Notes: generated by a model not told the origin, from the sequence alone. DNA of 64,000 bases from an uncultured bacterium (GCA_964399265.1 CAYNQF010000001.1:1195-65194), one strand, 5' to 3'. Shown: positions 6,024 to 14,706, numbered from the stretch's first letter. Made by a program: numbers and translations.

Positions 6024-9000
6024 CTACTCGCTCGACGCGGCCGAGGCGATCGAGCGGCCGGGCTTGAGGACTATGCCGTGACCGGTCTTGCTGTTGATGG
6101 CGATCTCGAGCGGCTGGTCGAAACGGAGGTGACGTACGAACTCGGTCTCCCGCACCGCCGGCTGCGTGTCGAGCCAGCCGTGGTCGAGCATCGCCGAGGC
6201 GTCGTCGGGCGCGAGCGTGAAGTAGCCGATGCCGAACGAGGTGATGTTCTGGAAGAAGTGGGTGCCCTGCGACGGGTCGACCCTGATGTCCTCGAGCGGC
6301 GCCTCGACTATGCACTTCGTTCCGGAGATCTGTCCCCATTTTACGGGGATGCCGAGCCACGGGTCAGCGCTGCCCCAGCGACCCGGACCGATGAGAACGT
6401 ACGGATGCTCGCCCTTCAAGAGCGCGTTCATCTCGCCGATCTGGTCGGCTATCTGCTGGGTCTTCGAGCGGTCGAATGCCGGCGTCCTCACGTAGACGAT
6501 GTCGCGCACGCCTTCGATCAGCCCGTGCCCCAGCGCGCTCGCCGACACCGCCACCGCCGCCGCGGAGTCGACTCCCTCTACGTCGACGTCGTCGGTCGTG
6601 CCTCCGAATACGAGGGGGCGTATCTGGAGAAAGGCGAGGCTGTGTCTCTCGCTCTCGCCCTCGGCGAGGTTGACCGCGAACTCCATCTCGACGTGACAGG
6701 TGAACCCTGCCTTTCCGACCTCGAGCAGGAAGCGGAGCGCCTCAGGGAGCCGCACGACGTCGCCCGACAGGAGGCCCGCCATCGTGATGAGCGGGTTCCC
6801 GTCCTTGCGCAGTCCCTCGTAGACCCGGTCGTTAGCCGGGGAGTACGTCGAGGCGACCGGCGCCAGAGTCCCGTGTTCCTCAGCGACCTCCTTGCTCAGG
6901 AGAACGAGGTTACTCTCCGGCGCGTCGGACGGCGAGCCGACCGGACCCGGTAGCGAGAGGTCGAGAGCGTAAAACTCGCGTTGCGAGTTGTTGAGGTAGT
7001 CGCTGGTCGACGAGAACTGGTAGAGCCTGTTCGGGTGCGCAGGCGAGAACCGCACGGTCCTGCCGCCCTCGACGACCATCCTCCCGAGACCGAGCGCAAC
7101 CGAGGCGACGCCGTCCTCGGCCGACGCCCCCTTGACCGGATAGTAGTCATAGGAACGGGCCACGCCCGCCGCGTTCGGGTACAGGTAATCGCCGTGCCGG
7201 CGGCCCGCTATCTGCTGGATGATCACGGCCATTTTCTCTTCCTCGAGCCTGTTCGGCGTCGACTCTATGTAGCTCTTCGAGTCGGCCGAGTAGGTCGAGG
7301 CGTAGACCAGCCGCACCGCCCGCGACAGCTCATCGAGCCGGACCTCTATGTCCTCGTCCATGTTCGGGATCATGTAGGTGTCGTAGATGCCGGCGAACGG
7401 CTGGAACGAGGAATCCTCGAACAGACTGGAGGAACGCACGGCCAGCGGATAGCGTACGCGCTCGAGGAACGTCCGTAGCTCGTCGAGCGTGTCCTGCGGC
7501 AGCGGGGCGCGAAGGAATGCCTCCCGTATCTTGTCGTCGTCGGTCTCCGCCAACGCCCGCTGGGTGAGCCCCGACCTCTTCATGAACTCGTCGAAGACCC
7601 CCGTGGCGACCACGGCGCTTGGGGGAACCGAGATGTGTACACCATCGATTCTGTCCTCGATGTCGTAGGCGTTCAGCAGCGAGTTGATGAACGCGAGGCC
7701 GCGGCCCTTGCCGCCCAGCGAGCCGGTGCCTATGCGTGTGAACGAGGCGCCCGCCTCGAACGTGTCGCGCGAGAAGTCCTCCACCAGTCCGGCCCTCGTC
7801 TGGGTCCGGTAGTCCCTGACGCAGGAGATGAGATATTCGCGCATCTCCTGCGTCGAGCCGAACTCGTCGGTCGTCACGGGCCTTATGGCCTTGGCGATGT
7901 CGAATTCGGTCCGTGCCATGAGCCACGTCGAGAAGTCGTTTCGCGTGGCGTGGAGGACGAGCGACTCGTCGGGAACCCGCTCCAGCGCGTCCAGGAGCGA
8001 CTTCAGGTCGGTGGCGCGGGCGAGCTCGTTGCCCCGCTCATCGACGAATGTGAAGTCCCCGAACCCGAGGTGCTCGCGCATGAACCTGCGGACATCGTCC
8101 AGGAGCGTGGGTGAGGTCTTCTGGCAGAACGCGGCCCCGGCGTCGCCGGCCTCTATCGCGAGTTCCGCGTCCGACGACTGGACGAGCACCGGTGTGCGGG
8201 AGTCGGCCTCCTTGACCATCCTGGCGAACGCGATGCCGGCGCGCGGATACGACTTGCCTCCGCGCGGGAACTTGCCGTCTGCGATGACGCCCAGGAGGTG
8301 TTCGTGGGTCGCCTTGTAGATCTCCTCGGCGTCCTCATACGTCGAGGCGAGCAGGATCTTCGGGCGGGCGCGCATGCGCATGAGCTTCTGCATGCGGTTG
8401 ACACCCTCGGACATGAGCGCCTGCGTCTGCGCCATGATCTCGGCGTACAGCATGGGCAGGTACGATGAATAGAAGCGGACCGAATCCTCGATCAGGATGA
8501 TGCTCTTGACGCCTGCGAGATCGGCGTCGTGGTAGCTGTTCATCAGGTCCTCGGCCCACTTGATGATGGCTAGGAAGACCCTCGCGTCGCCGAGCCATAC
8601 GAAGATGCGGTCGATGCCGCCCCTGTCCGACCTCTCTTTGAGGAGCGACAGCTCGCGCGTGTCGTACGCCAGCAAGACAACGGGGATCTCGGGCGCGACC
8701 TCCCGTACCCGCCTGCTGAACTCGAAGACGTCCATCTCTCCGACGCGCGGCATCGTTATGATGAGGTCCGGGTTCGTGTCCGTTATCTCCTCGACGGCTT
8801 CCTCGGCCGTGGAGACGCGGACGATGGTGGGGGCGGACGAGAGGTTCAGCTCCTGGTACTCGGTGAAGAGCATCTCACCCAGGTTCCCGTCCTCCTGGAA
8901 GGTGAACGAGTCGTAGAGGCTCGAGACCAGCAGTATGCGCCTCACCCTCCACGGCATGAGGTCGGAGAACGGAACACGCTTACGCTCTATCCTGCCTGCC

Positions 9001-9026
9001 ACTTCCTCGAGCGGGCGATACCTCAA
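6024..9026 (-). CDS. tandem CheY-like receiver domains fused to PEP-synthase-like PPDK_N ATP-grasp domain; C-terminal region without recognisable phospho-His (SHAAI-type) mobile domain
   Basis: Two N-terminal receiver-like modules (LLVSSLYD..., IILIEDSVRF...). The PPDK_N hallmarks GGKGRGLAFIN and VRSSSLFEDS are present. TTG start at 9026 with an AGGAGG RBS 9 nt upstream. Confidence 0.7.
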   Translation of the reverse strand: MRYRPLEEVAGRIERKRVPFSDLMPWRVRRILLVSSLYDSFTFQEDGNLGEMLFTEYQELNLSSAPTIVRVSTAEEAVEEITDTNPDLIITMPRVGEMDVFEFSRRVREVAPEIPVVLLAYDTRELSLLKERSDRGGIDRIFVWLGDARVFLAIIKWAEDLMNSYHDADLAGVKSIILIEDSVRFYSSYLPMLYAEIMAQTQALMSEGVNRMQKLMRMRARPKILLASTYEDAEEIYKATHEHLLGVIADGKFPRGGKSYPRAGIAFARMVKEADSRTPVLVQSSDAELAIEAGDAGAAFCQKTSPTLLDDVRRFMREHLGFGDFTFVDERGNELARATDLKSLLDALERVPDESLVLHATRNDFSTWLMARTEFDIAKAIRPVTTDEFGSTQEMREYLISCVRDYRTQTRAGLVEDFSRDTFEAGASFTRIGTGSLGGKGRGLAFINSLLNAYDIEDRIDGVHISVPPSAVVATGVFDEFMKRSGLTQRALAETDDDKIREAFLRAPLPQDTLDELRTFLERVRYPLAVRSSSLFEDSSFQPFAGIYDTYMIPNMDEDIEVRLDELSRAVRLVYASTYSADSKSYIESTPNRLEEEKMAVIIQQIAGRRHGDYLYPNAAGVARSYDYYPVKGASAEDGVASVALGLGRMVVEGGRTVRFSPAHPNRLYQFSSTSDYLNNSQREFYALDLSLPGPVGSPSDAPESNLVLLSKEVAEEHGTLAPVASTYSPANDRVYEGLRKDGNPLITMAGLLSGDVVRLPEALRFLLEVGKAGFTCHVEMEFAVNLAEGESERHSLAFLQIRPLVFGGTTDDVDVEGVDSAAAVAVSASALGHGLIEGVRDIVYVRTPAFDRSKTQQIADQIGEMNALLKGEHPYVLIGPGRWGSADPWLGIPVKWGQISGTKCIVEAPLEDIRVDPSQGTHFFQNITSFGIGYFTLAPDDASAMLDHGWLDTQPAVRETEFVRHLRFDQPLEIAINSKTGHGIVLKPGRSIASAASSE

Positions 9027-9080: not shown

Positions 9081-9110
9081 GGCTCGGCCCGGCGTTGGCC
9101 GGGCCGAGCC
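9081..9110 (-). terminator. perfect 13-bp GC stem (GGCTCGGCCCGGC / GCCGGGCCGAGCC) with 4-nt loop just downstream of transglutaminase-like gene B
   Basis: Read directly from the sequence. It sits between the stop of the 9120..11045 gene and the start of the 6024..9026 gene. An 18-bp GC palindrome lies at 9042..9059. Confidence 0.45.
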
Positions 9111-9119
9111 TGGTGTTAC

Positions 9120-11045
9120 CTAGACCTTCTTGAGCAGTATCAGGTTGTTTCTCGGAGCCGCGACACCGTCGGAAGCGGCCTTGAACGCCGCGTAGAGGTC
9201 GGTCGGGACCTGCATCTGCTTGATTACGACCTTCGCGCTCCAGGTGACCGTGTGCGTCTCCTTGTCCCACGAGCAGTCTATGCTCATGTCAGCGACGTCA
9301 CTCGTGGAGGATACCGCGTCGGGCAGCCTGACGACGTCGTAGCCCTCGGGTATGTCGAGGCTGACCGACAGGTCCGACTCGCTCTCGCACGGCATCTCGA
9401 ACGGATACCTGCGCTCGGCCAGCTTGGGATACATGTCGAACGACGCGAACTCGAACGGGAACCTGGGCACGCGCACGATCATCATGTCACCCTGCGGAAC
9501 CGCGAAGTCGGGGGCGTCAATAACCTGGCGAACCGTCACCGGAGCAGTGAGGTCGGCGAGGTCGGAGAGCGTCCGCTCGACGCTCTTCGCACCGGCGGAG
9601 ACGACGTTCGCATAACCGTCGAAGACCTTGCTCTCCTCGGAGTCGGTGGCGTCCTTGAGCGTCACGCGGGTCTTTCTGTCGAAGTACCCCGTCAACTCGC
9701 AGGCGGCCACGACGTCGGCCGAGCCATCGGGCGTGATCGCTATCTCCATCCACTTGTCGGCCTGGTTGTTCGCCGGCTCGAAGGCCGGGATCTTGACGAG
9801 TTCGCCCAAGCCTCCGTCCTTCACGACGAGAGCTGTATTCCCGTGGCCCCACCTCAGATACCCGTAGCGCACGTCGTCGAGCGACGGGTCGAGGAAATCG
9901 TATCCGCCCGCCGACGGGACAGCGACGAAGAGCCGGTCGAACTGCTTGAGCGTAGGCACGGATTCGACGAACCTGCCGCGCATCTGCTTGATCGCCGCCG
10001 GGTAGGCGTCTATGCCGGCCGCACGGAGCATACTGACCAGAAGGACCGCCTTGTCACGCGTGTCGCCGTACTTGTTCGCGAGCACGGTGGCAGCGTCGTT
10101 CGGCTCGTAGCCGCCCAGGCCGAGGGTCAGATAGACGTATCGAACGTTCTTCGCCACGTCCAGGAACAGCGTACGTATCTTGTCCGAGTCGGTCGTCGCG
10201 CCGGACGTCAGCTCCGCGACCCGCGCGGCGATCTCGCCGTCGGTCTGGACGTGCGGGTAGAAGACGTCCGCCATGAACGCGGCCGGATCATCCCACGATG
10301 TGTATGAGGAGAACATGACCGCGGGCAGAAGCTCGGACCGCGGCGGCATGTTGTCCTCCTCGACGAGGGCCGGCACGTCGTGCGTGGAGAACACCACGCT
10401 GCCGTCCTTTGCGTCCTCCTTGATCTCAACGTCGCCGAGCATCCCGGCCATCGTTGCGTATGTAGGCGTGTAGGCACCGGGCGGGTAGGAGAGCGTGAAC
10501 TCGGCGTTCAGAATGGGAGCCGTGCCGCCCATCGCCTCTATAGAGGAGAAGCTGCGGTCCGCGGCGGCCTTGGTGTTCTCGACCATCTGGAGGTCCATCG
10601 TGGAGCCCGGTCCTGCGACCGGGAACGAGATGACCTTCTCGAGGACGTTGGCGTAGATGGTTGCGCCCTCGAGGAACGACGGCGTGATGTCGTTGATGCC
10701 GTCCTCCTCTACGGGAACCTCTCTGCCCGACGATCTCACCGTGAGACCGTGAAGCATCTCGATCGTTGTGCGGTCGGTGTCGTAGTAGAACGACGGGTTG
10801 CTGTACTCCTCGCGCCCCATAAGGGTCAGGACGCGCGTGAGCCTGTTTCTCGTCGTCGTGAACGACCCGTCGTCGGCGACGTCGGTCATCTCCTGCAGGT
10901 AGAGAATGATGCCCGAGTCGTCCGGGTACTGCTCCTTGCCGGGCGCGTCCTTGATGAGCGCCTCGACGTCGACATTGCGCCACTGAGCGGCCGCAACCGA
11001 CGCCGCGAGGGCCAGGATGACGATCGCGCATAGTGCCTTCTTCAT
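9120..11045 (-). CDS. secreted DUF3857/transglutaminase-like family protein, catalytic Cys and His not conserved (likely inactive paralogue)
   Basis: Signal peptide MKKALCAIVILALAASVAAA. The core is GDTRDKAVLLVSMLRAAGIDA (Thr in the Cys position), with no His in the FxHG position but the Asp retained (YDFLDPS). The ATG follows the TAG of the upstream paralogue directly; AGGAGGG RBS. Confidence 0.7.
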   Translation of the reverse strand: MKKALCAIVILALAASVAAAQWRNVDVEALIKDAPGKEQYPDDSGIILYLQEMTDVADDGSFTTTRNRLTRVLTLMGREEYSNPSFYYDTDRTTIEMLHGLTVRSSGREVPVEEDGINDITPSFLEGATIYANVLEKVISFPVAGPGSTMDLQMVENTKAAADRSFSSIEAMGGTAPILNAEFTLSYPPGAYTPTYATMAGMLGDVEIKEDAKDGSVVFSTHDVPALVEEDNMPPRSELLPAVMFSSYTSWDDPAAFMADVFYPHVQTDGEIAARVAELTSGATTDSDKIRTLFLDVAKNVRYVYLTLGLGGYEPNDAATVLANKYGDTRDKAVLLVSMLRAAGIDAYPAAIKQMRGRFVESVPTLKQFDRLFVAVPSAGGYDFLDPSLDDVRYGYLRWGHGNTALVVKDGGLGELVKIPAFEPANNQADKWMEIAITPDGSADVVAACELTGYFDRKTRVTLKDATDSEESKVFDGYANVVSAGAKSVERTLSDLADLTAPVTVRQVIDAPDFAVPQGDMMIVRVPRFPFEFASFDMYPKLAERRYPFEMPCESESDLSVSLDIPEGYDVVRLPDAVSSTSDVADMSIDCSWDKETHTVTWSAKVVIKQMQVPTDLYAAFKAASDGVAAPRNNLILLKKV

Positions 11046-13028
11046 CTAGCCCTCCTCTTTCATGAGAATGACCTCACCCTTGACCGACCTTCCCGCCAGC
11101 CTGACCGCCTCTTTGAGCGCCTGGTAATCGGCGGGAGATATCTGGAACGAGTCGAGCGCCATCGTGCGGTCGTAGCGCACGGCCGGCGCCCCGTCGTTCT
11201 CGGAGGCGGGGAGGAACGAGTACTCCATCTTGAGGCCGATCGAGCCTTGCTGGAACTCGACGTCGTCCGGGAAGTTCCGGACCTTGAACCCTGCCGGTAT
11301 GTCGACGATACCCTCCTCCTCGACGCCCAGCGTCACGCCGAGCGCGATGGGGTACTTCCTCTCCTCGAGAGACACGAATCTGCCGAAGAGAATGCCCGAG
11401 AGTATGTCGAACTGGCCCGCCGCCGCCGGGACCCTGAACAGGCTGTATGGGTCGGCGTCCAGCATGTAGCCGTCGATCTCGTACGAGAAGTCGATCGTCA
11501 TCGGCTGATAGAGGTCCTCGTAGTCGGACACCGCGAAGTCGCTCATGACGGCGCCGGCGTAGAGCTGCTGCACCATGTTCTGCGCCATCATCTTCACCTG
11601 CTCGGGGCCCACCGAGCTTGCGATCGTGCGGAGGATCTCCTCGTACATGCCGCGCCCCGTGATCTTGACGCTCCCCTTGAGCGTCCCGTTGGCCGCGAGC
11701 GTCGAACGGTCGGTGATGACGCCGGAGTTCTCCGACGCCGGCACGTGCGGTGCCTGCTGGATGTCCTCGCCCTTCTCCGTGGCGATGAGCACCCACCTGT
11801 CACCCACGTAGGAGGCGTAGACCGAACGGCTCATCTCCATCGTCGGGTCGATGAACTTGTACGAGCCGTCGTCGCCTTTGATGGCCACGATGCCGTGTTC
11901 GAAGTAGACGGTCGGAATCTCCGTGTCGGTCTTCCTGCTCGGGTTGATGAAGACGACCCAGGCCGGGACGCCTATCTCCTTGAGCATCGTCACCATGAGG
12001 ACCGCTTTGTCCCTGCAGACGCCGTACTCCTTCTCGAGCGTGTACGCGGCGAAGTGCGGCTCGAGGAACATGCTGCGGTCCATCGCTATCCCCAGGTACC
12101 GCACGTTCTTGATGATCCAGTAATGGATCGCCTGGATCTTGTCTTCCTTCGTCTCGAGCCCGTCCGTCACCTCCGCCACAACGTCCCTGATCGAGTCCTC
12201 GACCACGCACTTGTCGTTCGAGATCTCCCACGCGTAGCGGGAGAGCTCCTCCCAGCTCTGGACCGTCGAGACGATGACTCGCGTGGCGACCTGCGCCATC
12301 GGGGCCATGCCGACCTCTGGCTCGATCTTGGGAGCGTTCTTGCGCGTCCACGTGTAGATCTTGTAGTCGCCCTCGGTCTTCTCCGAGAACTCGGCGTCAC
12401 CGTCCTTCACGATGTGCTTGAGGGGCATGTCCGCGGGGCCCTTGACGGTCACGGTCACGTCGATCATGGGCTCCGTGTACTGCATGAAGTACATGCCGTT
12501 GAAATTGTTGTCCAGGAGCGGCTCGTACTTCTCGTGGACCAGCGTCTCGACCGCGTCTCCGACCTCGAGGCCGGGGAAGACGATCGTCTTCTCGCGGAAG
12601 TCGGTCTCGTAGATATCCATGGCGGCGATGGCGGGAGGCGTGCCGTCGGTGATGAGGTCGTCGCCCACCACGATCTCAGTGCCGTCGACCTTGATGACCC
12701 GGGCCAGGATGACGTCCACGGTCCCGTACCGTCTGTGGTAGTTGAACGAAGCGTCGGCGTTTCTGTCGATGCCCTCTTCGGTCAGGATCTTGGTGAGGGA
12801 GTGTGAGTACTGCTCGTAGGCGCCGGACTCGTCGAACTCGACGTCGGTCTGGTCGAGCACCACGACGGAGTTGGCGTTCGGGTTGTCCTCCGCCTCCCCG
12901 GCCGCCGCCAGCAGCTCCAGGGCGTCGTCGAGCGCAAGCGGCTCGAGCGCCGCACCTGCCGCCTGGGCGAGCAGCGAGACGGCCAGAAGGGCCACCAAGC
13001 CCGCCAGACAGCGCATTCGGATACGCAT
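11046..13028 (-). CDS. secreted DUF3857/transglutaminase-like cysteine protease family protein with intact Cys-His-Asp triad
   Basis: Core GVCRDKAVLMVTMLKEIGVPA ... FEHGIVAI ... YKFIDPT. Signal peptide after ATG 13028, with an AAGGAG RBS 6 nt upstream. The longer ORF to 13109 is probably an over-extension. Confidence 0.7.
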   Translation of the reverse strand: MRIRMRCLAGLVALLAVSLLAQAAGAALEPLALDDALELLAAAGEAEDNPNANSVVVLDQTDVEFDESGAYEQYSHSLTKILTEEGIDRNADASFNYHRRYGTVDVILARVIKVDGTEIVVGDDLITDGTPPAIAAMDIYETDFREKTIVFPGLEVGDAVETLVHEKYEPLLDNNFNGMYFMQYTEPMIDVTVTVKGPADMPLKHIVKDGDAEFSEKTEGDYKIYTWTRKNAPKIEPEVGMAPMAQVATRVIVSTVQSWEELSRYAWEISNDKCVVEDSIRDVVAEVTDGLETKEDKIQAIHYWIIKNVRYLGIAMDRSMFLEPHFAAYTLEKEYGVCRDKAVLMVTMLKEIGVPAWVVFINPSRKTDTEIPTVYFEHGIVAIKGDDGSYKFIDPTMEMSRSVYASYVGDRWVLIATEKGEDIQQAPHVPASENSGVITDRSTLAANGTLKGSVKITGRGMYEEILRTIASSVGPEQVKMMAQNMVQQLYAGAVMSDFAVSDYEDLYQPMTIDFSYEIDGYMLDADPYSLFRVPAAAGQFDILSGILFGRFVSLEERKYPIALGVTLGVEEEGIVDIPAGFKVRNFPDDVEFQQGSIGLKMEYSFLPASENDGAPAVRYDRTMALDSFQISPADYQALKEAVRLAGRSVKGEVILMKEEG

Positions 13029-13305
13029 TTCCGCTCCTTTCATAAGAAAGCTCGGGTAATCGAGGATACTTCGATTGTTACAAACGCATAACAGGACACG
13101 ATTATGCACGCTACCGCTCCGACGGGCAAGTGGAGGCTCCGAGGCCCGGGCGAAGGCCCTTCAAGGTCTGCGCCGCGGGCCCTCACGCGCACACCTGAGG
13201 AAACCGGGGCGGTCGTCTTTCATGTGGGACGACGTCCTGTTATAGCATGCCCCGCGACGCGGGGCGGTCGGCCCCCGGCCGGGGACCGGCGAACCAGGAG
13301 GAACG

Positions 13306-14706
13306 ATGTCTGACAGGATGCTCACTCACTTCCGACGCGCTCACTTGGGGCATGTCGCAGCCGTCGTGGCGGTCGCGTTCATGGTGGGGCCGTTCGTCCT
13401 CACGTGCGTGGCGCAGGACGAGGCCGCTCCAGCGGCGCAGGGCGGGTACGACGTTCCGGTCCCGGCCTGGGTCGCGGGCGTGGCGACCGACCTCAAGCAG
13501 GAGTTCGTGATGGGCCTCGCCAGGCAGGCCGTCGAGATGGCGGAGTCGAGCGCGACCGAGGAGGTCAAGCTCCTCACCGATTCGTCCGACGGCATGGTTG
13601 CGGCCGCCAACAAGGTCGACGATACGATGAGTACGATCGGGACGATCGACTCCTCGTTCGGCATCCCCGGCATCTCGAGACTCGTGACCGCCGAGGGCGC
13701 CGTGCGCGACACGCTCTTCGGGTTCGTCGTGTGGCACGAGTCGGCCGCCGGGGAGAGCCGCGATATCGCTACGAACCTCGAGGCGGCGGTCGACAGGATG
13801 AAGGAACTGAGCCTCGCCGCCAGGTCGAACGCCCGCAAGCTCGCGGACAACGCCGCCGACGTGAGGGCCGCGCTGGCCTCCGAGGACTATGCGGGCATCG
13901 CGTCGTCGTCCGGTGTCGTCACGGAGGCCACGGACCAGCTCGGGCTCATCGCCGACGAGGCGGAGCAGGTCTCCGGAAGAATAGAGGAGATCGTCTGGAA
14001 GGTGCAGGACGGCGGAGGCTCGCCACTCGAGACAGAGTGGCAGCAGGTGCTCCTTGCCGTCAGCGACACGCGCCGGCTGGCGTCGAAGATCAGGCCCGCC
14101 CTGACGTCGCTGAGGGAGGGGAGTGGCGCGTCCGAAGCGCTCTCGGCGGCCCTGCAGGGCATGGTTGAGTCGATAGTCATCATGGACCGGGCCGTGGCGG
14201 ACGAGAGCGGTTCATTCCATTACCCGTCATCGCTCTTCGAGAGGGACGTGGACGTGGTGACGGCCCTCGAGAGGAGCGTGTCCGATAGCGACGGGACGGC
14301 TTTCCCGGAGGAGACCGCCTCTTCGATCCAGTGGCTCCTGGCCAAGGTCGCCATGGCCGAGCGCGCGCTCGCCGAGCGGGCCGTGGAGTACACGTCGACC
14401 CAGGTCGGCCGTGCCATGGACCGGCTCGAGGACAACTACAAGCGGGCCAGCGGCTTCGACAAGTCCTTGAGCGGCCGCGAGCGGATCGAGGCCTACGAGC
14501 CCGTCGACGCGGCCATGAGAGGCAACGCGGACCTGCAGGCGGCGCGCACCGCCGTCCGTGAGGCGCGGGTCACGCTCGACGCCGGCAAGTCCGATGAGTC
14601 CGCGGGCGCCGGTTCCCTGGGTTCTGCTCTTGAGAACTACCGTGATGCTTGGGTACACTCGATGACGGCGGGAGCCTCCGCCGTGAGATCGATGAAGTCC
14701 CTCTAG
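13306..14706 (+). CDS. hypothetical Ala-rich alpha-helical protein with N-terminal signal anchor
   Basis: AGGAGGAA RBS then ATG 13306. One N-terminal hydrophobic segment. The remainder is a low-complexity helical/coiled-coil-like sequence with no recognised domain. Confidence 0.5.
   Translation: MSDRMLTHFRRAHLGHVAAVVAVAFMVGPFVLTCVAQDEAAPAAQGGYDVPVPAWVAGVATDLKQEFVMGLARQAVEMAESSATEEVKLLTDSSDGMVAAANKVDDTMSTIGTIDSSFGIPGISRLVTAEGAVRDTLFGFVVWHESAAGESRDIATNLEAAVDRMKELSLAARSNARKLADNAADVRAALASEDYAGIASSSGVVTEATDQLGLIADEAEQVSGRIEEIVWKVQDGGGSPLETEWQQVLLAVSDTRRLASKIRPALTSLREGSGASEALSAALQGMVESIVIMDRAVADESGSFHYPSSLFERDVDVVTALERSVSDSDGTAFPEETASSIQWLLAKVAMAERALAERAVEYTSTQVGRAMDRLEDNYKRASGFDKSLSGRERIEAYEPVDAAMRGNADLQAARTAVREARVTLDAGKSDESAGAGSLGSALENYRDAWVHSMTAGASAVRSMKSL

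Follow-up and report, generated by a model that had tools for sequence, protein, structure and literature searches.

A 64,000-nucleotide stretch of DNA from an uncultured bacterium (GCA_964399265.1, CAYNQF010000001.1:1195-65194), which we refer to in its entirety as the window, carries two long open reading frames (ORFs) lying head to tail on the minus strand. The upstream one, gene A, and the downstream one, gene B, encode predicted exported proteins of the DUF3857/transglutaminase-like type. Exact copies of the 660-aa and 641-aa products are present in NCBI, both on one 71-kb contig (protein P0001 is A, with 100% identity over 660 aa), and close relatives of the two are annotated as metagenome-assembled genomes of Candidatus Eisenbacteria.

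Two abutting genes for transglutaminase-like paralogues

Compared directly by BLASTP, A and B are 24% identical over their full length (E 4e-41) and are thus full-length paralogues. The features of the two genes and their products are as follows.

11046..13028, minus strand: gene A, 660 aa, ATG start at 13028, TAG stop at 11048-11046 included
12948..13028, minus strand: gene A signal peptide, residues 1-27 (MRIRMRCLAGLVALLAVSLLAQAAGA/A, the slash marking its end), read off the sequence
12324..12827, minus strand: gene A DUF3857 beta-sandwich domain, residues 68-235 (PF12969)
11847..12185, minus strand: gene A transglutaminase-like core (PF01841 at residues 282-366)
12015-12017, minus strand: gene A Cys338, in YGVCRDKA
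11895-11897, minus strand: gene A His378, in YFEHGIV
11847-11849, minus strand: gene A Asp394, in FIDPT
9120..11045, minus strand: gene B, 641 aa, ATG start at 11045, TAG stop at 9122-9120 included
10986..11045, minus strand: gene B signal peptide, residues 1-20 (MKKALCAIVILALAASVAAA/QW), read off the sequence; a low-confidence helix in the structural model
10368..10874, minus strand: gene B DUF3857 domain, residues 58-226 (PF12969)
9888..10223, minus strand: gene B pseudo-active-site core, from the Transglut_core match and the A/B alignment
10059-10061, minus strand: gene B Thr329, at the former Cys position, in YGDTRDKA
9933-9935, minus strand: gene B Arg371, at the former His position, in QFDRLFV
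9888-9890, minus strand: gene B Asp386, retained, in FLDPS

The DUF3857 model (PF12969, cut-off of 24.6 bits) matched A at 93.6 bits (E 1.9e-26) and B at 64.7 bits (E 1.4e-17), and the Transglut_core model (PF01841, cut-off of 23 bits) matched them at 46.7 and 38.4 bits. A search by sequence for DUF3858 (PF12970) gave 11.8 bits in B, against a cut-off of 27, and no match in A. Support for this third domain in B comes at the level of the fold only, through a match to the Protein Data Bank (PDB) entry 3kd4; relatives score up to 20 to 27 bits by sequence.

An active transglutaminase-like cysteine protease has a Cys-His-Asp triad. Gene A encodes one and gene B does not, the alignment pairing YGVCRDKA with YGDTRDKA (Cys replaced by Thr), YFEHGIV with QFDRLFV (His replaced by Arg), and FIDPT with FLDPS (Asp kept). 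Each N terminus runs from a positively charged n-region through a hydrophobic core to an Ala-rich c-region with an AxA-type end, and a heuristic found a signal-peptide-like N terminus in 80 of 84 A orthologues. In some Eisenbacterial B orthologues (L005 and L010), a lipobox (LLVGC and LLAGC, respectively) takes the place of the plain signal peptide, which suggests that B may be membrane anchored in some lineages.

Much of this had been anticipated by an earlier reading of the sequence, which we call the original prediction. Sequence inspection bore out its two signal peptides, Pfam and the full-length alignment bore out the common DUF3857 and transglutaminase-like architecture, and the GVCRDKA, FEHG, and IDPT motifs it had assigned to A do hold the intact triad. 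On B it was right that Thr stands in for Cys, that the Asp is kept, and that the His is lost, but the last position is a conserved Arg or Lys rather than simply a missing residue. Pairwise alignment and profile searches, which it had named as a check, returned the paralogy, DUF3857, and Transglut_core, but not DUF3858, which fell short of the cut-off in both proteins.

The folded part of B is well predicted. An AlphaFold2 model (predicted local distance difference test score [pLDDT] of 92.8, predicted template-modelling score [pTM] of 0.88) is a compact three-domain protein beyond residue 20, with residues 2 to 20 forming a low-confidence helix. It matches 3kd4 with an E value of 5e-37 and a template-modelling (TM) score of 0.86, and its fold also matches the pseudo-transglutaminases protein 4.2 and Rad4/XPC. 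The 3kd4 protein itself lacks a catalytic Cys, having Thr-Pro there (YGTPLE), and its sequence is nearer to B than to A. Judged by that sequence, the only solved structure of the DUF3857/DUF3858 family is a pseudoenzyme-type member.

The two genes meet without a gap, and the following features bear on their expression.

13101..13129, minus strand: promoter-like -35 and -10 elements (TTGCCC, 17 nt, CATAAT), some 70 nt ahead of the ATG of gene A
11051..11057, minus strand: gene B Shine-Dalgarno sequence GAGGAGG, within the last codons of A (K-E-E-G), read from the junction sequence
11043..11048, minus strand: TAG/ATG junction at which the A stop (11048-11046) touches the B start (11045-11043)
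9081..9110, minus strand: GC-rich 13-bp hairpin beginning 10 nt past the gene B stop, terminator-like, without a U-tract

The junction reads AAA GAG GAG GGC TAG ATG AAG, with an intergenic distance of zero. The original prediction had placed the ATG of B directly against the TAG of A and the ribosome-binding site of B inside the coding sequence of A, and both placements are correct. Abutment of this kind is geometry typical of translational coupling, as far as can be read from sequence. Gene A has its own GGAG 8 nt upstream of the start codon. The site at 13129-13101 is the sole minus-strand promoter-like match upstream of A; it is a consensus match alone, in a region that gave 2 sites against 1.1 expected by chance. 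A scan of the A/B junction found no promoter-like or terminator-like site there. The 93-nt spacer that follows gene B has a folding energy of -57.3 kcal/mol (z -4.4), and hairpins resembling the one at 9081..9110 follow B in many, not all, Eisenbacteria loci. Because A and B lie on the same strand at zero distance, with no promoter or terminator between them and a hairpin only after B, the geometry of the locus imposes a single predicted transcription unit. Separate transcription, which the original prediction had named as an argument against itself, is not what a locus with no intergenic DNA, a ribosome-binding site inside A, and a promoter-like site only upstream of A would lead one to expect.

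Recurrence, fusion, and active-site state of the pair

We looked for the pair elsewhere by scanning one genome per species with an A-family pattern and scoring the 80 loci obtained with our own A and B profile hidden Markov models. The A loci came from Eisenbacteria, Aminicenantes (some labelled Eubacteriales or Clostridia), Gemmatimonadota, WOR-3, Acidobacteriota, Lentisphaeria and Victivallales, Verrucomicrobiota, Planctomycetota, and Kiritimatiellia. They were arranged as follows.

50 loci of 80: split A then B, same strand (Eisenbacteria, Aminicenantes, Gemmatimonadota, WOR-3, others)
18 loci of 80: A and B in one ORF (fusion)
2 loci of 80: A and B merged through a frameshift-like stretch
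3 loci of 80: solo A (Acidobacteriota subfamily with FGVCRDV)
7 loci of 80: locus cut by a contig end, not assessable

An intact-triad A was thus followed by B or fused to it in 70 of the 73 assessable genome loci, spanning about nine phyla. The reverse scan, of metagenome contigs with a B-family pattern, found A with its Cys-His-Asp triad directly upstream of B in 27/27 assessable loci, so that no B without A was seen among the 27 metagenome loci with enough upstream sequence. By these counts, the association is an old and near-obligate one. The recurrence in related genomes that the original prediction had proposed as a check is therefore found in both directions. Within the 64-kb window itself, a search detected no further copies of the A or B type.

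The tight junction recurs along with the order. In Eisenbacteria it reads GAGGAGGGC TAG ATG or TAG ACG ATG in 22/22 loci. Elsewhere, split pairs have ATGA overlaps in most Aminicenantes and gaps of at most 12 nt in other lineages.

In the 18 fusion loci, from PVC-group phyla (Lentisphaerota, Verrucomicrobiota, Planctomycetota, and Kiritimatiellia), the two modules make up a single chain of about 1260 to 1320 aa with one signal peptide. Scored with the profiles, the N half is of the A type, with the Cys-His-Asp triad. The C half aligns to the B profile starting at about position 38 to 45, just past where the signal peptide of B would be, and has lost all three triad positions, with GYGDSADRA, for example, at the former Cys helix. 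The linker between the halves is short, hydrophilic, and well conserved. When one fusion served as the query in a protein search, hundreds of relatives came back, the best 120 of which were nearly all 1220 to 1330 aa long, and among the best 145 cluster representatives from a search with the B profile, 46 of the 48 with two modules paired an intact N half with a degenerate C half. The AlphaFold2 model of one fused protein, P0354 (1172 aa, alignment of 119 sequences), has a pLDDT of 90.4 and a pTM of 0.68, and in it the series of beta-sandwich, helical/core, and alpha-beta domains occurs twice.

Some apparent fusions were set aside. In the Aminicenantes loci L041 (5964-9459) and L044 (5973-9777), an Arg/Pro/Gly-rich, junk-like stretch and a B signal peptide lie between the modules, and we take these joined ORFs as the probable products of a frameshift or an assembly error, not as natural fusions. 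The 1090-aa protein P0118 proved to be an A-type protein carrying a large insertion.

Stop codon usage at the pair is uniform in Eisenbacteria: across the genome loci L001 to L026, TAG ends A in 23/23 cases and B in 21/21, despite protein identities of 50 to 85%. The long ORFs of the window end in TGA 24 times, TAG 14 times, and TAA twice. We also considered programmed read-through of the TAG, which would make an A-B fusion, and rejected it. The frame that A and B share arises only from the TAG abutting the ATG, B has a signal peptide of its own that is without counterpart in the natural fusions, and TAG is also the stop of B in all 21 loci and is common in the window (14/40 long ORFs).

We then counted the triad columns in full-length database homologues, 115 of A and 110 of B. 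All 115 A homologues have the intact triad, as does every A gene or N half examined. In the B homologues, the Cys column holds T in 88, Y in 10, S in 4, P in 3, A in 2, W in 2, and C in 1 (109/110 without Cys), and the His column holds R in 84, K in 7, S in 5, H in 4, L in 4, Q in 3, A in 2, and T in 1 (106/110 without His). The Asp column is D in 107 and N in 3. Only one match to the B search, P0238, has all three residues, and it is a distantly related gene that stands alone, not a true B. Across lineages, the former Cys position of B may be T, Y, S, P, A, W, I, L, G, E, D, N, or sometimes C, and the position of the base is R, K, A, Y, W, D, S, or Q, with His nearly always absent. The residues flanking the lost nucleophile, by comparison, hardly change: D328, [RK]330, and D331 are invariant in 45/45 B proteins from several phyla, giving B the signature G-D-x-[RK]-D-K (residues 327 to 332) against G-[VI]-C-R-D-K in A.

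These columns bear on whether B might still be an enzyme, with Thr329 as nucleophile or with a relocated Cys or His. A Thr at the Cys position in 88 of the 110 close homologues, the retained Asp, and the conservation of H265, C449, C553, and C591 within Eisenbacteria would fit such an activity. The nucleophile and base positions are highly variable across phyla, however, the extra Cys and His residues are replaced outside Eisenbacteria, and the C halves of the fusions lack all three triad positions. We therefore rejected a relocated catalytic Cys or His, the finding that the original prediction had said would undo it, and consider catalysis by B through other residues very improbable.

A pair of tandem paralogues in which one has lost its catalytic residues could also be a recent duplication with B decaying as an incipient pseudogene. 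A and B are only 24% identical, however; over 100 lineages have B as an intact ORF, at 47 to 81% identity within a phylum, B is also present in other phyla, and its model is confident (pLDDT of 92.8). The conservation of B across lineages already refutes this explanation, to which we give virtually no credence. In 45/45 loci, A was closer to its window copy than B was, by a mean of 5.7 percentage points; read from these identities, B is under purifying selection and evolves slightly faster than A. By its sequence and predicted fold, B fits the definition of a pseudoenzyme (PMC5106787, PMC10211241), being an enzyme homologue without catalytic residues that is conserved and folded.

A proposed two-module enzyme and its alternatives

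The paralogy of A and B, the state of the triad in each, their junction, and the conservation, order, and fusion of the modules are direct observations. We propose, at a probability of roughly 0.65, that A and B make up a two-module exported thiol enzyme in which A would be the catalytic module and B a non-catalytic partner, and in which the physical association, chemistry, and substrate are our inferences. Coupled junctions, fusions (a Rosetta-stone argument), and strict co-occurrence all point, indirectly, to an association of the two proteins. The enzyme and pseudoenzyme pair of the original prediction thus gains support from the triad states, the conserved order, and the fusions.

Under this proposal, one mRNA transcribed from upstream of A would carry both genes. 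A ribosome ending A at the TAG would reinitiate at the adjacent ATG, using the Shine-Dalgarno sequence inside A, which would keep the two products near a 1:1 ratio. Each protein would then be exported through Sec by its own signal peptide, and the two would associate outside the cytoplasm at about 1:1. The sole working Cys-His-Asp site would be that of A, carried on a core of the transglutaminase or papain type. B, a full-length three-domain copy minus nucleophile and base, would be kept as a non-catalytic partner for stabilization or for recruiting or positioning the substrate, probably through the conserved pseudo-site helix G-D-x-[RK]-D-K. In the likeliest chemistry, A would use its thiol to break, or transfer, a peptide or isopeptide bond in a protein or peptide that is secreted or belongs to the envelope; cross-linking would be less likely.

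The same genomic associations have to be weighed against a reading in which A and B are independent exported proteins, B being a free-standing binding or structural protein (lectin-like or adhesin-like) that forms no complex with A and is its neighbour through shared regulation. Pseudoenzymes often do acquire separate binding roles (PMC5106787, PMC10211241). B has its own signal peptide, or a lipobox in some orthologues, and the 3kd4 protein, B-like and Cys-less, crystallized alone. What makes this reading unlikely is that stop/start abutment or overlap is near-universal in split pairs (gaps of about 65 and 300 nt were seen where the B-clade gene keeps its triad), that the modules have been fused into one polypeptide repeatedly, in four phyla, that no A-less B occurs among the 27 assessable loci, and that the subtree of A mirrors that of B.

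Association of the two proteins would also be expected if B were a subunit that inhibits A or keeps it latent, acting like a prodomain or as a pseudo-substrate, tethered or co-exported, and restraining A until a signal arrives. The pairs, junctions, fusions, and co-occurrence speak for such a subunit as much as for a partner in catalysis, and the conserved acidic residues at the pseudo-site would suit it. Many exported cysteine proteases and transglutaminases are made in latent form, which lends the idea general plausibility. No sequence feature of B is specific to inhibition, however, the linker of the fused form is short and well conserved, and all three domains are kept at full length, beyond what an inhibitor would need. 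We consider this role improbable.

Several observations weigh against the two-module enzyme as we have described it. Solo active relatives exist (L054, L056, and L060 in Acidobacteriota, and P0238), so the fold needs no partner in principle. Three B-clade genes, L128 (1352-3364), L129 (1509-3446), and L130 (1476-3413), keep a full triad and still follow A, and a further B-clade protein on a short contig, P0361, also has a full triad. B is therefore not dead in every lineage, and the ancestral pair may have consisted of two active enzymes, each with its own substrate, instead of a catalytic subunit and an adaptor. The pTM of 0.68 for the fused P0354 is only weakly informative on how the halves pack, the signal peptides were assessed by eye and with a crude heuristic, and no neighbouring gene that might hint at a substrate is conserved across phyla, synteny being found within phyla only.

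The triad-keeping genes also bear on the history of the pair. In L129 and L130, A has YGVCRDKA and B has YGDCRDKV...QFDHILL, with a 65-nt gap between the genes; gaps to A are larger in such pairs generally (about 65 and 300 nt for B-clade genes with YGDC...F[DK]H). Since some B-clade genes keep the triad and follow A, the pairing predates the loss of catalysis, and L128 to L130 look like the stage before that loss. Other B proteins, from WOR-3 and L047, have kept the Cys without the His (CDD, CWS, and CSD). Neighbour-joining trees, calculated without support values, place all A sequences in one clade (split A genes, N halves of fusions, and solo genes), and the A and B subtrees in them mirror one another. 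Read from these trees, loss of the triad in B was probably lineage specific and happened more than once.

The wider superfamily is large. A profile search collected 29,109 representative clusters at E values up to 1e-3 (about 29,000 clusters at 50% identity). In the neighbour-joining tree, solo "YGDC" enzymes with an intact triad branch between the A and B clades. These solo DUF3857-transglutaminase relatives often carry N-terminal tetratricopeptide repeats (TPRs), which by sequence form a third architecture of the superfamily. The TPR regions are about 190 or about 600 residues long; examples of such proteins are P0409 and P0422, of about 1220 aa, and P0414, P0400, and similar proteins, of about 800 to 850 aa. 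TPRs on solo active relatives suggest protein substrates and an accessory binding module.

A broader view, which we offer tentatively as a possibility, is that A and B represent an ancient and previously unrecognized exported cysteine enzyme, heterodimeric or fused into a pseudo-dimer, that extends from Eisenbacteria to gut Victivallales. Its second subunit would have begun as an active enzyme, lost the triad independently in several lineages, and become a substrate-handling half like the M16 alpha subunit. If this is true, the DUF3857 superfamily would consist mostly of envelope-protein processing enzymes that need a non-catalytic accessory module, be it a dead paralogue or TPRs.

The family and the concept of an enzyme-pseudoenzyme pair are already known; what appears to be new is the pairing of DUF3857 proteins across phyla, split or fused. 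The pair answers no long-standing question. DUF3857/transglutaminase-like proteins are a large family without a known function, and one major branch of it is a fixed unit of live enzyme and dead paralogue, which gives experimenters a concrete handle in either its split or its fused form. The same branch offers a natural series leading toward a pseudoenzyme, from both copies active, through Cys kept and His lost, to loss of the triad.

Neighbouring genes and comparison with known systems

Downstream of B, at 6024-9026 on the minus strand of the window, lies a gene for a 1000-aa cytoplasmic protein with a response-regulator receiver (REC) domain and a PPDK_N domain (phosphoenolpyruvate-synthase-like, ATP-binding). 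A REC/PPDK_N gene follows B in 19 Eisenbacteria loci (L001, L009, and L012 among them), starting 1 to 5 nt past the B stop in some; in the window, the 93-nt spacer between them contains two hairpins. The REC/PPDK_N gene may share an operon with A and B in Eisenbacteria; in other phyla, its place beside the pair is not conserved. Divergent from A, at 13306-14706 on the plus strand, is a 466-aa gene whose product has a hydrophobic segment at its N terminus and matched no Pfam or NCBIfam model significantly. The gene adjoins A in 24 loci of Eisenbacteria, where its product could be a partner or substrate specific to this lineage, or the arrangement could be no more than conserved synteny. In Lentisphaeria, the neighbours of the pair are a gene for a metallo-beta-lactamase (MBL)-fold hydrolase together with pyrK and pyrD. 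We dropped conserved neighbours as a clue to the substrate, nothing being common to several phyla. Across the whole window, we found no tRNA gene and no Rfam family at its gathering score.

A search of the accessible literature on DUF3857, DUF3858, 3KD4, BDI_1141, and PF12969 found no report of a function or a pairing, and returned incidental mentions only: in Xanthomonas, of a gene next to lolA; in Tannerella, of an entry in the proteome of outer-membrane vesicles; and in a vasohibin paper, of a profile match. The 3kd4 structure, the one behind the Pfam families DUF3857 and DUF3858, is that of BDI_1141 from Parabacteroides distasonis, deposited as a "putative protease" and, at 506 aa, shorter than A or B; the search found no published functional study of it. 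The A-B pairing would explain why 3kd4 has no catalytic Cys. Domains similar to the DUF3857 beta-sandwich stand at the N termini of M1 aminopeptidases and of Ost1/ribophorin I.

Other pseudoenzymes with a transglutaminase fold are erythrocyte protein 4.2, Rad4/XPC (compared with PNGase), and yeast Cyk3. They differ from B in being eukaryotic and cytosolic or membrane-skeletal, and they neither adjoin nor partner an active paralogue. The closest functional analogues of A are the periplasmic BTLCP enzymes LapG and HvyA (PMC3032545, PMC4241560), which belong, however, to another family and are small, single-domain proteins without DUF3857 or DUF3858 and without a dead paralogue as partner. The Pfam model of the BTLCP/LapG family matched neither A nor B. 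The solo "YGDC" DUF3857-transglutaminase proteins are members of the superfamily to which A and B belong and share their three-domain module, with the triad intact. They differ in having one catalytic module, and their accessory part consists of TPRs rather than a dead paralogue.

M16 peptidases occur either as two-gene pairs (mitochondrial processing peptidase and bacterial M16B heterodimers) or as fused single-chain enzymes (M16A and M16C). They are zinc metallopeptidases whose fold and chemistry are unrelated to those of A and B, and the comparison is an analogy only. In mitochondrial processing peptidase, one of the alpha and beta chains is catalytic, and the other is a homologous, non-catalytic subunit that helps to bind the substrate (PMC3673636). 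The logic proposed for A and B is that of the M16 pairs, with active and inactive homologues that are either split or fused, and this is the closest working analogy to the pair described here.

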